Assembly (NCBI GenBank): GCA_041674765.1
Contig: JBAYVE010000001.1
Span: forward strand, 134,177 to 198,176
Direction: 5' to 3'
DNA from: Patescibacteria group bacterium
Lineage (GTDB): Bacteria; Patescibacteriota; UBA1384; XYA2-FULL-43-10; 1-14-0-10-43-13
DNA: 64,000 bases
Shown here: piece after piece, positions 24,814 through 62,105 of the stretch
Layout: the number at the start of each line of letters is the position of its first letter
Position numbering within the stretch: the stretch's first letter is position 1
The notes under the pieces: generated by a model
What the model was told of the DNA's origin: nothing
Databases searched by the model: none
The model's input: only the letters and a program-made list of their open reading frames with translations
Translations under genes and position numbers: made by a program

Positions 24814-25258
24814 GAATTCGATTTTTATCGTTCGAACATCGCATATTATGATTCAAACAAAGTGAGAACTAACTTAGTTTTTATATTTCAGCGGAAGATT
24901 TATCCTCTTAAAACCCCACAATAGATCCCACTTCGCTTCCTCCTTCGCTAAAGCTACGGAATGGCACGGCGAGGGACACGGTCGGAATGACTAACTATTT
25001 TGCAGTACTTAGTACTATAATCTGAAGATTTCTCCCCCTTTTCGAGGGGGAGCTAGAGGGGGTGTATTTAAATTTGTCATCCCAGGGGCAGGCAAAGTCG
25101 AAGGCCGGGGATTCAATGCCTCTTTATCGTTCGAACAAGCGAGAACTATTCTTTTTTTGTGCCTATCAAAGCAAGCGCTCTTACCTCAACCTCTTGACTG
25201 CTATGTCGATTCGGCGTATAATATATATAGAAATATCCCACAATAAGGAGGTACGGGG

Positions 25259-25687
25259 ATGTTTAGTTTTGGTGGTTCGCAGGGAATCAAGTTGTACATC
25301 AATGGCAGATTTTCTGCCCGAGGGATGACTTCGCTCAAGTTAATCAAGCGTCGAGTTATAGATAGTCGCTTGAGATCCCAATATTATCGTGCTCACATTG
25401 AGCACACCCGTGAAGTCACTCCTCAACAGAGAGAGCTATTAAGTCAACTGATGCCGTCGATCTCTTGCAAGCTCAAAACGATCGAAAGCGTCGCGATCGA
25501 CGTTTATGAGAAAAGCCGAGCCGAAGTGGTTGGCATGGTCGACCCAGTGACCGCTCGCGTTGACGTGCTGCAGGCAAGTCCTTTAGGAATTTTGCAATTT
25601 GCAGTTATTGTTGACATAACCATTCCTCGCGTCATCGACGCATGGAATGTTCCAAGTACAGAAAATAGCTGCCCCAAGGCATCTTAG
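25259..25687 (+). CDS. hypothetical protein in a GC-rich islet
   Basis: Strong Shine-Dalgarno AAGGAGG 7 nt upstream. Followed by a perfect intrinsic terminator. GC content clearly above the window average. Confidence 0.5.
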   Translation: MFSFGGSQGIKLYINGRFSARGMTSLKLIKRRVIDSRLRSQYYRAHIEHTREVTPQQRELLSQLMPSISCKLKTIESVAIDVYEKSRAEVVGMVDPVTARVDVLQASPLGILQFAVIVDITIPRVIDAWNVPSTENSCPKAS

Positions 25688-27965: not shown

Positions 27966-28055
27966 ATCTGCTTGTCTGTCATTCCTGCGGAGGCAGGAAT
28001 CTAGGTACGAAAACGCGCCTTCTGGATCCCGGATCAAGTCCGGGATGACAAGGGG

Positions 28056-35089: not shown

Positions 35090-35375
35090 TGCAAGTTAAG
35101 TGTACATAATTATTTCGTATTTTAAAACAAATGGCTGACTTTTGCTTTCCGGATTGTTTCCGATTGAATAAAGGCAGATAATTTGATAGTATTACTTCGT
35201 TTCCCGCATTCTGCTAAAGCGGTAGGAAGAGAGTATTTCTTCAAGAAACGTTCTTACTTCAAATAGCTAGAAGAGAATGAAATGATATAATCATGGAGAG
35301 GTTCCCGCATTCCGCCAAGCGGAAGCAGGGACGCCTGCTTCGCCAGTCGGCGAATGCGGCGCGCTATACCGATTA

Positions 35376-35618
35376 ATGTTTTTTACATATATATTAAAAA
35401 GTGATAAAGATAATAAATACTATTATGGCTCAACCGCAAATATAGATAATCGTTTATTGGAGCACAATAGTGGTAAAGTAATAGCAACGAAAAATCGACG
35501 TCCGTTCAAGTTAATCTTCTCTGAAGAATTCAGTACAAGGAGAGAAGCAATAAAGAGGGAATTTTTCTTCAAGAAGCGTTCGGGATATAAATGGCTTAAG
35601 GATAATAATATTATATAA
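35376..35618 (+). CDS. GIY-YIG nuclease superfamily protein (UPF0213 / YhbQ-like)
   Basis: FFTYILKSDKDNKYYYGSTANIDNRLLEHNSG is the GIY-YIG core. 80 aa. Confidence 0.8.
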   Translation: MFFTYILKSDKDNKYYYGSTANIDNRLLEHNSGKVIATKNRRPFKLIFSEEFSTRREAIKREFFFKKRSGYKWLKDNNII

Positions 35619-35621
35619 TAC

Positions 35622-35711
35622 GGTGGGATCGCATAGTGGCCTAGTGCGCACGCTTGGAAAGCGTGTAGGCGGGCAACCGTCTCCAGGGTTCGAATCCCTG
35701 TCCCACCGCCA
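35622..35711 (+). tRNA. tRNA-Ser (anticodon GGA) with encoded CCA
   Basis: Cloverleaf read directly from the sequence. Acceptor stem GGTGGGA/TCCCACC, anticodon loop TTGGAAA, long variable arm, T-loop GGTTCGAATCC, and a 3' GCCA. Confidence 0.85.
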
Positions 35712-51034: not shown

Positions 51035-51050
51035 CCTTGACTATAAAAAA

Positions 51051-51085
51051 AGGCGTCCGGATTCGGATCCGCACGCCCATACGTT
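51051..51085 (-). terminator. minus-strand intrinsic terminator
   Basis: Reverse complement reads ggcgtgcgga-tccgaa-tccggacgcc followed by TTTTTTT. Confidence 0.5.
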
Positions 51086-51698
51086 GTCAGCTAGTCTTGC
51101 GACTGCCGACCGAGTCAGTTAGTCGGGGCTCTTCACCCCTGAGTTTGGAAAAAAATTTCTCGGGGATCCACGATGTATGTCTCCTCGTGTTGAGTTTATC
51201 AGCGGAGAGCTGAAGCTTCTGCTAAAGTTTCAGTAACTGACAATTGATTATTTGCCTGGTTTATTTCCTGTTGTAGGAAAAGCTGATGCACGGTTGCCGA
51301 TGAATATTCATACGGACGGTTTGGCAGGGAGCTTATAACACCCAGGGAATATCAACGACAGATTCTGCCTACTTCGCAGGAACATTCAGAACCTCTGATT
51401 GTTGAAACAATACCTCAAGAATAAACGCTTGTCAATAGGCCAATCGTTTTTTTGTTTTTAGCTACTTTCAGTGCCAATAACTAACTCTTATGTTTCTTTG
51501 TTGCTGGCAGCATCATATTGTCATTGCCCATGTCTTGTTTTTGTTCTACTCTTTTTTTGATAAAAAGATTGGTATGCCTTTTTTCGTGGGTGTAATTCTT
51601 TTTGCCTTTTTCTTCTTTTGACATGAGAATATTTTAGTAATAATCTTATTCCAATCCAAGAGCAAAAATGATATTAAAATTAGTGTTGTGATAATAGT

Positions 51699-51926
51699 GT
51701 CATCCTCGGGCAGGCATCGCCATGACCCGGGGATCCAATACCTTATTATCATCCAAACAAAGATTTTATTGTTCGAACACAGTGAGAATTATTATCATTT
51801 CTATTAGAGGACATGGGGACTCTCCGCCAGCTGGCGGACCGAAGTCGTCCCCCTATCCTCTAATAGCAATAAGGTATTGGATCCCCGGGCACCATTTCCA
51901 AAAACACCATTGGTCCCGAGGATGAC
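51699..51926. repeat. nested inverted-repeat structure (12-bp, 22-bp and 11-bp arm pairs plus an internal GC palindrome)
   Basis: gtcatcctcggg / cccgaggatgac and cccggggatccaataccttatt / aataaggtattggatccccggg are perfect pairs; a third pair was read as ctattagagga / tcctctaatag but could not be confirmed against the sequence. Inner palindrome ccgccagctggcgg. The 3' arm overlaps the mug start. Confidence 0.8.
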
Positions 51927-52506
51927 ATTGTATATAGTATTTATTGTGAATCGCAATAAGCCCACAAAAGAAGATTTGGCAAATGCTATCCATAAAAAGG
52001 TGCCAGATATTATTGCGCCGAATCTAAAATTATTATTTGTCGGCATTAACCCCGGCCTTTATACAGCCGCAATCGGCCGCCATTTTGGTCATCCGGCCAA
52101 TAGATTCTGGAAGGCACTTTTTGATTCGGGCCTTTCGCCCAAGTTATTATCGCCATACGAAAATGAGAAATTATTGAAACTTGGCTTTGGCATTACTAAT
52201 TTAGTTGAAAGGCCGACATTGAGAGCGAACGAAGTAACGAAAGAAGAGCTTGTTGAAGGTAGAAAAATACTGGAGAAAAAAGTAAAAAAGTTTAAACCAA
52301 AATTCATTGCAATTTTGGGCTTAGGAGCTTATCAGATTGCTTTTAATAAAAAAGCAAAAATTGGCCCGCAGGAAGAAAATATTGCAGGTGCCAAAGTTTG
52401 GGTCTTGCCCAATCCAAGCGGATTGAATGCTAGCTTCACGCCGAATAAATTGGCTTCAATTTTTCGACAGCTTAAATTAGCACTTGATAAGTCGTATTTA
52501 GGCTGA
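51922..52506 (+). CDS. mug: G/U mismatch-specific uracil-DNA glycosylase (Mug/TDG family)
   Basis: VPDIIAPNLKLLFVGINPGLYTAAIGRHFGHPANRFW aligns with the E. coli Mug N-terminal catalytic region. The start is uncertain because it sits inside the inverted repeat. Confidence 0.8.
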   Translation: MTLYIVFIVNRNKPTKEDLANAIHKKVPDIIAPNLKLLFVGINPGLYTAAIGRHFGHPANRFWKALFDSGLSPKLLSPYENEKLLKLGFGITNLVERPTLRANEVTKEELVEGRKILEKKVKKFKPKFIAILGLGAYQIAFNKKAKIGPQEENIAGAKVWVLPNPSGLNASFTPNKLASIFRQLKLALDKSYLG

Positions 52507-57069: not shown

Positions 57070-57170
57070 GGTTTTTTGTGAACACGTCTATTTCTGTCAT
57101 CATTAAAGTTAACGCCCCAGGGGGTGGGGCGTTTAATTAGATGGCAATTGAGGACAAGGTTCGGATACAA

Positions 57171-57402
57171 GTAGCCCAGCCTTCAGGCTGCACAAGCTGA
57201 AGCTTGGTCTACAAGAACTTTGTAGCCTACCCTTTAGGGTGATTTTGCAAGCTTCCCACTTAGTTGAAACTACCACCCTTCGCCCTAAGACTATGGCGTG
57301 GCACAGCGAGGGACAAGAAATCTTAGACTACCAGAAGTCCCATAGCTCCACCTTTCAGGGTGTTCCCAAAGTCCATTCCTTCGTAGTTCAGCCTTTAGGC
57401 TG
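57171..57402 (+). repeat. REP-like tandem array on the 5' side of the RAYT (five units)
   Basis: Units start at 57171, 57222, about 57272 (degenerate), about 57343 and 57383. Consensus GTAGCCCACCCTT(C/T)AGGGTG, a 20-nt palindrome beginning with GTAG. Spacers carry a second palindrome, caAGCTgAAGCTTg. Confidence 0.85.
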
Positions 57403-57414
57403 TCAACAAAACTT

Positions 57415-57960
57415 ATGAGACCAAACTATAAACCAAATTTTACCAACCGTCCGAATCATATTCAGCAAGATGATAGTTTTTATTTCCTTACTGTCCGAAC
57501 TGTCAATGCCCAGTGGTTTTTGCAGCCTGACCCCTACAAGCAGATTGTGTTTGACAAAATCCATGAAAAAATCAAGAAGTTTGGCTATCAGCTTATTGCA
57601 TTTGCGATTCTCAATAACCACTATCATTTGCTTGTAAAAATAGTCGATTCAAAGAAGATCGCTAAGTTTATGAACGAATTAAACGGAGCAAGTGCCAGAG
57701 AAATAAATAAGGCTGATTTTGTCATCGACCGCAAAATTTGGTGGAATTACCTCGACCACGTTATTCGAGACGAAGCTGACTTTTTCAAACATTTAAATTA
57801 TATCCACCAAAACCCGATTAAACATGGACTAACAAAGGAATTGGACTATAAATTCTCAAGCTATTCTGCTTGGGTGAGGAAGAAAGGCGTGGAATATCTA
57901 AATCATTCGTTTGAGAAATATCCGGTCGTAGATTTCAAAACATTCAACGACGAATTTTGA
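57415..57960 (+). CDS. REP-associated tyrosine transposase (RAYT; IS200/IS605-like HUH Y1 transposase)
   Basis: HUH motif NNHYHLLVKIV and a C-terminal YIHQNPIKHGL motif (the RAYT Y-x-x-NP(V/I)(K/R)xGL catalytic-Tyr region). Flanked by REP arrays. Confidence 0.85.
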   Translation: MRPNYKPNFTNRPNHIQQDDSFYFLTVRTVNAQWFLQPDPYKQIVFDKIHEKIKKFGYQLIAFAILNNHYHLLVKIVDSKKIAKFMNELNGASAREINKADFVIDRKIWWNYLDHVIRDEADFFKHLNYIHQNPIKHGLTKELDYKFSSYSAWVRKKGVEYLNHSFEKYPVVDFKTFNDEF

Positions 57961-58003
57961 GATAATAATTCCAACAAGCTGAAGCTTGATCTCCGTTTTC
58001 ATC

Positions 58004-58241
58004 GTAGCCCAGCCTTTAGGCTGATGTCACAATCTAAAGATTGTACTTCCCTAACCGGGACCAACCTTTAGGCTGATTTTACAAATTGAAGCTTGTTATG
58101 TCAGAAACCCTGTAGCCCACCCTTTAGGCTGAACTAACAAACTAAAGTTTGTTCTACGATATAATTGTAGGTCACCCTTCAGGGTGTCGTTATCAAGCTA
58201 AAGCTTGCACTACTTTTTTCCGTAGCCCACCCTTCAGGGTG
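58004..58241 (+). repeat. REP-like tandem array on the 3' side of the RAYT (five units, period about 54-55 nt)
   Basis: Units at 58004, 58058 (degenerate), 58112, 58167 and 58222. All GTAG-led and in the same orientation. Same AAGCTnAAGCTT spacer module. Confidence 0.85.
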
Positions 58242-58281
58242 TGTCTTGAGACTTGAATTGATTAGCTATTCAGAATAAGAT

Positions 58282-61665: not shown

Positions 61666-62069
61666 TAACTGATTTTAGAACTGATTCCTCGCCAATACAA
61701 TCCTTTTATCAATTTTTTCGCCCTAAATTGTGGATTTCAGGGGACGCCTCCACAATTAAATACTGTTTTGGTGATAAGTAATTTTTTGAACCTCAATTCT
61801 TTTTGGCGTAGAATTAAGGAAATAATAAGTGGGAGAAATATGGTTATAGATATTGAACTAACTTTGAATAGATTAGGGCTGGGGAAAATTGCCGATAATA
61901 AATTCCAACTCTTTTGGCTGAGATTTTCTCATTGGGACATTCCCGGTAAATATTCTATTTCTTTTGAAATAAACTGGGTTAATAAAGAGAGGTGGAATAA
62001 AAAATAGTTCGCGAAACCAGTGACCTCTGACTAAGGAATGATTTTTATTATCTTTCAATTATTTCGGGA

Positions 62070-62105
62070 TATTTGAACGATCGTTCAAATATCCCGAAAA
62101 ATGAT
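62070..62105. promoter_or_regulatory. perfect 36-bp palindrome upstream of the 62191 gene (candidate operator)
   Basis: TTCGGGATATTTGAACGATCGTTCAAATATCCCGAA. A related copy lies at 62738-62773. Confidence 0.6.

Follow-up and report, generated by a model that had tools for sequence, protein, structure and literature searches.

A 230-bp element in front of the mug gene, here referred to as E2 (positions 51698-51927 of the window, i.e. of the whole 64-kb stretch of DNA analyzed), probably is a repeat at the DNA level and not an RNA device. It would represent an inverted doublet of GTCAT-hairpins of the NTS/dRS3/SRM kind, which are targets of Ssn-type nucleases. Judged by its sequence, the most plausible reading of E2 is that of a homotypic doublet with extended stems, a variant of the Ssn-related hairpin repeats hosted by a Berkelbacteria-like genome. 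Rather than being an element of a new kind, it extends a recently described system to another phylum and another architecture.

The first description of Ssn proteins and their hairpin motifs dates from 2025 and concerns mainly Neisseria and other Pseudomonadati (Chenal et al., Nat Commun 2025, PMC11893778). The Neisseria Transformation Sequence (NTS), CGTCATTCCCGCGMAVGCGGGAATCYRG, includes the older dRS3 repeat; a variant, CGTCATACTCGGG-N5-CCCGAGTATC, and a degenerate Ssn-related motif (SRM) were also defined (PMC11893778). SsnA is a 94-aa single-domain GIY-YIG protein that binds and cuts NTS and SRM hairpins solely as single-stranded DNA, a few nucleotides upstream of the hairpin, and its residues Y6, Y17 and E64 have been mutated. 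Binding depends critically on the C following the palindrome, and cleavage on the three bases preceding it, whereas the hairpin needs no loop and tolerates a longer stem. Typically, ssn genes carry the motif on both sides (PMC11893778).

Architecture and folding of E2

The sequence-only reading had described three concentric pairs of inverted-repeat arms at this site. The arms themselves are present, but instead of being concentric they belong to two inverted copies of a hairpin module and to a separate central hairpin. The outer pair, previously read as 12 bp, was one base longer in the repeat scan and pairs TGTCATCCTCGGG (51698-51710) perfectly with CCCGAGGATGACA (51915-51927) over 13 bp. 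The pair of 22 bp (51726-51747 with 51868-51889) is perfect as had been stated; this 22-mer occurs at two sites in the window, both being the arms, with a chance expectation of 0. The perfect arms suggest a recent origin or correction within the palindrome. The 11-bp pair that had been regarded as doubtful does exist (ctattagagga, 51801-51811, and tcctctaatag, 51856-51866) and is situated within a pair of 24-nt arms sharing 88% complementarity (51797-51820 with 51847-51870). The ggggac/gtcccc pair (51815-51820 and 51847-51852) and the GC palindrome ccgccagctggcgg (51824-51837, 14 nt, perfect) were likewise found as reported.

Together, inverted repeats I1, I2 and I4 and the fold z-scores define E2 as an inverted doublet of two GTCAT-hairpin modules separated by a core of 146 nt. 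The general form of the modules in the arms is TGTC-ATCCTCGGG-(apical part)-CCCGGGGAT-CCA. On the plus strand, the left module reads TGTC-ATCCTCGGG-caggcatcgccatga-CCCGGGGAT-CCAA (51698-51738), and on the minus strand the right module reads TGTC-ATCCTCGGG-accaatggtgtttttggaaatggtg-CCCGGGGAT-CCAA (51927-51877). According to the module finder and the single-stranded DNA fold, the left module (type A, 51699-51735) is composed of GTC (51699-51701), the stem half ATCCTCGGG (51702-51710), an apical part (51711-51725), the stem half CCCGGGGAT (51726-51734) and the C at 51735. The same analyses placed the right module (type A', minus strand) at 51880-51926; it shares GTC, stem and 3' flank with the left one, has a different apical part of 25 nt, and includes GAGG (51918-51921) and ATG (51922-51924). 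Both modules fold individually as single-stranded DNA, the left one alone with -10 kcal/mol. Its apical extension contributes CA:TG and GGC:GCC pairs with two A bulges. Since the apical parts add pairs, the hairpins of E2 are extended stems with single-base bulges and not large loops.

The central hairpin (51797-51870, repeat I2) consists of stems of 11 bp and 6 bp around the palindrome CCGCCAGCTGGCGG (51824-51837). Folded as DNA it reached -19.8 kcal/mol (z = -5.9), and no copy of it was present in any fetched locus. The folding energy of the whole region, proposed earlier as a check, was pronounced: the 236-nt stretch reached -114.3 kcal/mol as RNA (z = -11.5), with 0 of 200 shuffles being as good, and -62.4 kcal/mol as DNA (z = -11.7). 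As RNA, the minus strand scored z = -9.5 as compared to -11.5 for the plus strand. Folding equally well on both strands is expected of a DNA palindrome.

No second copy of the E2 core was obtained from a metagenome scan, the fetched loci, plasmids and phages, or viral contigs. BLAST of E2 against plasmids and phages gave no match, and neither did two patterns scanned over viral contigs. The metagenome scan with the inner part specific to E1 and E2, GGGGATYCAATRCCT...TTCGAACA, returned one match in a high-GC coding region, which was judged to be due to chance.

Related elements in the window

Five GTCAT-hairpin modules were found in the 64-kb window, compared to 0.6 expected in shuffles. The 82.5 kb of the source contig that were inspected (the window plus 18.5 kb of extra flank) contain three elements, E1, E2 and E3, and thus a low copy number. 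Homology of E2 to positions 25076-25150 had been claimed earlier and was borne out, with 72% identity over 64 nt and 81% over 36 nt. This region belongs to E1 (25076-25329), a decayed relative of E2 comprising a type-A module (25076-25112, plus strand), an RS motif (25123-25150) and the half-site CTGCCCGAGGGATGAC (25314-25329), the reverse complement of which agrees with the 5'-end at 14 of 16 positions. An open reading frame overlapping the 3'-end of E1 (25259-25687) is an orphan that matched only itself among 1.8 billion protein representatives. Having no homologues, it provides no argument against an extension of E1 into this frame. Encoding 142 aa, it has an AGGAGG site and a perfect promoter, TTGACT-17-TATAAT (whole region 25194-25687); its codons 19-24 coincide with the right half-site of E1.

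E3 (27977-28051) is a minimal doublet of 75 bp located between two minus-strand genes and made up of two inverted modules. The left module (27977-28004, plus strand) reads TGTC-ATTCCTGC-ggag-GCAGGAAT-CTAG and the right module (28022-28050, minus strand) TGTC-ATCCCGGA-cttga-TCCGGGAT-CCAG. The latter is a 29-nt sequence identical to a module in a Berkelbacteria locus (L019).

A pair of RS motifs, TTATCRTYCRAACA...GAGAAYTA, is situated in E2 on the plus strand at 51743-51793 (copies at 51743-51759 and 51765-51793), as derived from alignment with 24815-24895 and 25110-25175. By BLAST, the RS segment of E2 shares 71% identity over 66 nt. Two further, free-standing copies are located at 24824-24873 (plus strand) in the same repeat-rich spacer as E1. 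Written as TTATCGTTCGAACA(N)AGYGAGAAYTA with the palindrome TGTTCGAACA at its heart, the motif has five copies (24824-24873, 25123-25150 and 51743-51793), all of them in or beside elements with GTCAT-hairpins. A binding site for a protein is one possibility for its role, an 'RS' segment common to the elements another. Copies of another repeat family, unrelated to the first, occur in the E1 spacer (24934-24975) and in the flank of the RAYT gene described below (57277-57315); they read CCTTCGC..TAAG.CTA.GG..TGGCAC.GCGAGGGACA.

Relatives in other genomes

The RpoD encoded in the window has its closest named matches in Berkelbacteria and Patescibacteria, which marks the source as a CPR bacterium. 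A pattern derived from the part common to E1 and E2 was scanned over species-representative genomes and resulted in 20 loci. True relatives were recognized at 16 of them, originating from at least 8 MAGs of Berkelbacteria (five loci in a single MAG), Saccharibacteria and other Patescibacteria as well as one MAG of the Lysobacterales. The other four (Pedobacter, an alphaproteobacterium, Breznakiella and a proteobacterial MAG) lacked the family flanks and were taken as chance matches. Several MAGs carry multiple copies of the module at unrelated places, and the same module adjoins unrelated genes in at least eight other genomes.

The first 40 nt of E2 share 97.5% identity with six loci (L004, L014, L015, L020, L021 and others), and the left module shares 95-97% over 38-40 nt with four further ones. 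Identity to the copy beside the Ssn-like gene in locus L008 amounts to 97.4% over 38 nt (37 of 38 nt). This near-identity extends to positions not fixed by the search pattern. At 13 of the loci the module is paired with a second, inverted GTCAT-hairpin within about 20-150 nt, with the GTC ends pointing outward. This partner hairpin often is exactly ATTCCCGC-N4-GCGGGAAT, the dRS3/NTS core. No direct repeat of 2-10 bp was found at the borders of any of 15 doublets.

A comparison of 40 modules revealed 12 distinct versions of the stem. Compensatory changes occur at stem position 3 (C-G/T-A), position 6 (C-G/T-A/G-C/A-T) and position 8 (G-C/C-G/A-T). As the module finder demanded GTCA[TC], only the base preceding GTC provides independent evidence in the 5' flank; it is T in 35 modules and C in 5. 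The 3' flank, which was not demanded by the finder, reads C in 38, Y in 40, A in 35 and G in 23 of the 40 modules at its successive positions, and this consensus agrees with the NTS.

In the Berkelbacteria MAG PEZW01, the doublet is nested in a larger inverted repeat, TTAAGACTTACACG ... CGTGTAAGTCTTAA, and this larger repeat recurs at two loci (L004, 5270-5470, and L020, 6240-6410). Other repeat units are inserted in hairpin loops at L016, L017 and L005.

Comparison with Ssn-related hairpins and NIMEs

The modules share with NTS and SRM hairpins a pyrimidine-GTC-AT 5' flank, a GC-rich palindrome of the form ATYCC...GGRAT and a C-Y-R(-G) 3' flank, in addition to multiple copies per genome and compensatory changes in the stem. 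The 5' flank of the SRM, H-GTC-W-Y, is matched by TGTCAT at both E2 modules, at E1 and at E3, and the GC-rich palindromic stem is kept by compensatory changes as in the SRM. In place of the SRM 3' flank, C followed by Y-R-G, both E2 modules read C-C-A-A, which conforms to it up to the fourth base, where A replaces G. Further differences are the 15- or 25-nt apical extensions that form extra pairs and a conserved T.G mismatch at stem position 5.

The literal SRM search string, HGTCWYN(0-2)YYVSBRHN(0-5)WNVSBRGN(0-2)RNCYNB, matched only one of the five modules in the window (28022-28050 in E3). Both E2 modules escape it because of their apical parts of 15 and 25 nt. Given that longer stems are tolerated and no loop is needed (PMC11893778), the string is a search heuristic and not a functional requirement.

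A further similarity, seen in other genomes than that of E2, is the presence of hairpin copies on both sides of small GIY-YIG genes. In L008, a type-A module ends 9 nt before the ATG of a GIY-YIG gene of 96 aa, and an NTS-like hairpin begins at its stop codon. Tyr7, Tyr18 and Glu65 of the encoded protein correspond to Y6, Y17 and E64 of SsnA; this protein, a candidate for the Ssn type (cd10448), matches the Pfam GIY-YIG family (5e-15) and shows only weak similarity to UPF0213 structures. Ssn-like genes with GTCAT-hairpins on both sides were also found in L006 and L033. Unlike the known hosts of NTS and SRM, the host of E2 is a Berkelbacteria-like Patescibacterium, and tblastn detected no Ssn-type gene in the 82.5 kb of its contig. 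A single GIY-YIG gene was present there (35376-35618), and it belongs to the UPF0213/YhbQ type.

E2 also resembles the NIMEs of Neisseria, in which RS segments are located between inverted dRS3 repeats (ATTCCC-N8-GGGAAT). Common features are inverted hairpins bracketing segments of 50-150 bp, segments shared by several elements (the RS motif in E1, E2 and 24824-24873), and clustering in repeat-rich spacers. Moreover, the partner hairpin of related doublets in Patescibacteria is literally ATTCCC-N8-GGGAAT, and exact dRS3 cores serve as partner hairpin in L013 and L018-L021. In contrast, the NIME bracket was not found in E2, whose stems are ATCCTCGGG/CCCGGGGAT, nor in E3 with ATTCCT-N8-AGGAAT. 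Thus, E2 has two hairpins of the ATCCTCGGG type and not dRS3, contains a private central palindrome and belongs to a different phylum.

Position of E2 relative to mug

The mug gene (51946-52506, plus strand) encodes a G/U mismatch glycosylase of the UDG superfamily (Pfam PF03167, E = 4.9e-23). Alignment of the N-termini of 13 homologues placed their starts about 4-6 residues before the sequence KPTKEDL, which corresponds to GTG 51946, 19 nt past E2. Alternative in-frame starts are ATG 51922 and TTG 51928; in an ATG-started Mug, the UDG domain begins at residue 29. The ATG (51922-51924) does lie inside the right outer arm, as the sequence-only reading had pointed out. The public gene call (gene table L001) uses TTG 51928, probably because GAGG (51918-51921) in the right stem precedes it by 6 nt. 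GAGG and the in-frame ATG and TTG codons supplied by the right arm get picked up by gene callers, and mug may have obtained from E2 a ribosome-binding site and a start codon as alternatives to its own. As the conserved part of Mug begins near GTG 51946, E2 abuts mug and is located outside its conserved coding sequence. Between E2 and this codon there is no room for a promoter, so that part of E2 probably is transcribed together with mug. An incidental influence on mug expression is therefore conceivable. That E2 lies in front of mug is most probably due to an accident of insertion.

The nearest Mug homologue (P0002, locus L024) shares 67-69% identity and is found in a different gene context. 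Its upstream region, inspected following the earlier proposal to compare syntenic mug loci, is free of an E2-like element. An empty E2 site would read ...GATAATAG joined straight to TTGTATATAG... Such a site was not recovered among relatives with 89-93% identical RpoD, which lack both conserved gene order downstream of rpoD and mug at this place; we attribute this to the poor conservation of gene order in the available relatives. In the organism carrying L024, short-read contigs end 40-100 nt ahead of mug, a hint that this site may contain a repeat as well, and next to P0002 (2880-3340 of L024) another small GIY-YIG gene accompanies two tRNA-like sequences.

No genes were called between 51035 and 51927. 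The portion upstream of E2 (51035-51697), about 660 nt without a called gene, is unusual for a compact CPR genome. It contains fragments resembling halves of modules (CGGGGATCCA at 51161-51170) and a GAGCTGAAGCTTCTGCTAAAGTTTCAG stretch resembling the palindromes beside the RAYT gene; no Rfam match was obtained in this portion.

Alternative explanations

An RNA switch sequestering the mug start had been suggested for this region. A structured mug leader of this sort, hiding ribosome-binding site and start codon as a translational switch or thermometer, would fit GAGG, ATG 51922 and TTG 51928 lying in or beside the outer stem, the high stability of the structure as RNA and the probable co-transcription with mug. 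It nevertheless appears quite improbable to us. Apart from one chance match to FasX, E2 had no Rfam match even at E <= 10, and searches extended to the window, the two repeat-rich spacers and the 16 related loci gave a tRNA as the only other match. In many genomes the module stands beside unrelated genes and in either orientation, the genes downstream vary from copy to copy, and the nearest Mug homologue has no such element upstream. Furthermore, homologues align their N-termini outside E2, and the sequence folds equally well on both strands. The earlier proposal of a MITE-like unit fared better in part: E2 indeed is a repeated palindromic DNA unit similar to MITEs or REPINs and is not specific to mug, but a target-site duplication is lacking. 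The perfect 13-bp termini, the small size, the multiple copies and the intergenic location would be accounted for if E2 were a classical MITE whose terminal inverted repeats allow mobilization in trans by a DDE transposase from another part of the genome. Like Correia elements and other bacterial MITEs, E2 is small and intergenic, has terminal inverted repeats and resembles those elements that provide promoter or ribosome-binding signals to their neighbors. Correia elements, however, duplicate a TA target and are derived from transposase-bearing insertion sequences. The lack of target duplications at the 15 doublets argues against an ordinary transposase-driven MITE. Moreover, about 300 kb of fetched loci contained no transposase with matching ends, and what is conserved is a hairpin, with compensatory changes in its stem, and not a linear terminal repeat. 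We therefore regard a classical MITE as unlikely.

That E2 is a REP- or REPIN-type substrate of a RAYT was another suggestion of the sequence-only reading, and a bona fide RAYT gene is encoded 5.5 kb downstream of E2 (57415-57960; NCBIfam NF047646, 87.9 bits at a cut-off of 80). REPINs too are inverted doublets of hairpins that fold into a long hairpin and lack target duplications. For both kinds of repeat, the presumed agent is a small enzyme that works on the single-stranded form and is encoded between copies of the repeat. This RAYT gene, however, is surrounded by seven REPs of its own, GTAGCCCASCCTTYAGGSTG (57171-57402 and 58004-58241, all on the plus strand), and not by GTCAT modules. These REPs (GTAG-CCCAGCCTTYAGGCTG) have no sequence in common with E2 and, within the window, occur only beside the RAYT gene, which implies that E2 is not its substrate. 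The 5' signature of the E2 modules is GTCAT and not GTAG, and elsewhere they flank genes for GIY-YIG enzymes and not for HUH/Y1 transposases. Taken together, this makes a RAYT substrate very unlikely. At 57100-58260, the REPs are interleaved with CAAGCTGAAGCTTG-type palindromes. Least of all do we believe in an assembly artefact, a chimeric fold-back join or a vector-derived sequence, for which the odds are close to nil. A contig from an independent assembly (Logan, SRR6484325) that matches with 100% identity over 10,257 bp has its first base at 51835, about four bases beyond the center of the palindrome, and 12 nt coincide with a cloning-site sequence, ACCCGGGGATCC, which presumably is also part of the pUC polylinker. 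The position of this contig end corresponds to the usual assembly break near a palindrome, and the right half of E2 is matched base for base by this second assembly. The halves of E2 are asymmetric, with apical parts of 15 and 25 nt and a segment without partner (51748-51796), and different genuine genes are found on the two flanks, which excludes a fold-back artefact. In addition, at least 8 independent MAGs contain this module.

Proposed mode of action and implications

For E2 as an inverted doublet of Ssn-type targets, a mode of action can be proposed. Whenever the locus becomes single-stranded, e.g. during replication or repair or in DNA taken up by transformation, the 5'-proximal module of each strand would form a hairpin. 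Its stem and the C that follows would be bound by an Ssn-family nuclease, a small GIY-YIG protein with a single domain, which would then nick the strand on the 5' side of GTC, at a distance of a few nucleotides and at the outer edge of E2. The doublet architecture has the same ends as the arrangement 'module A - ssn - module B', which suggests that doublets like E2 are gene-less derivatives of such units that may be spread or maintained by this nuclease. In this organism, E2 would accordingly be recognized and cleaved by an Ssn protein, and it may be mobile.

A farther-reaching and clearly more tentative possibility is that units such as the one in L008 are autonomous mobile elements driven by their GIY-YIG enzyme, with E1, E2 and E3 being non-autonomous derivatives. 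The near-identical 38-nt hairpins in Berkelbacteria, Saccharibacteria and other Patescibacteria would then reflect horizontal spread among these reduced, naturally competent bacteria. If true, this would constitute a hairpin-guided mobility system based on single-stranded DNA that differs from both the HUH/RAYT and the DDE systems.

The same kind of hairpin is thus now found in the Patescibacteria (CPR), in an extended-stem version missed by the published string, in inverted doublets and beside an Ssn-like gene. Because the string misses extended-stem modules, family counts made with it probably are too low. With their common ends, the units with and without a gene are a concrete pair on which to examine whether Ssn mobilizes its repeats. 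Genome annotation is affected as well, since start codons contributed by such elements can be false or alternative ones, as at mug, and since short-read assemblies break near the center of these elements.

Other hairpins and palindromes in the window

The UPF0213/YhbQ-type GIY-YIG gene at 35376-35618 encodes 80 aa (PDB 1ywl, E = 1.5e-8). Two adjacent GC-rich hairpins are located upstream of it (35303-35361; DNA fold z = -3.2), with a related sequence at about 35200-35230, and a long-arm tRNA (35622-35708) follows 3 nt downstream. This gene may encode another small nuclease with its own hairpin repeat. A perfect palindrome of 38 nt, TTTCGGGATATTTGAACGATCGTTCAAATATCCCGAAA, was found at 62062-62099 (DNA fold z = -5.6), and an independent Logan contig (L002) ends inside it.
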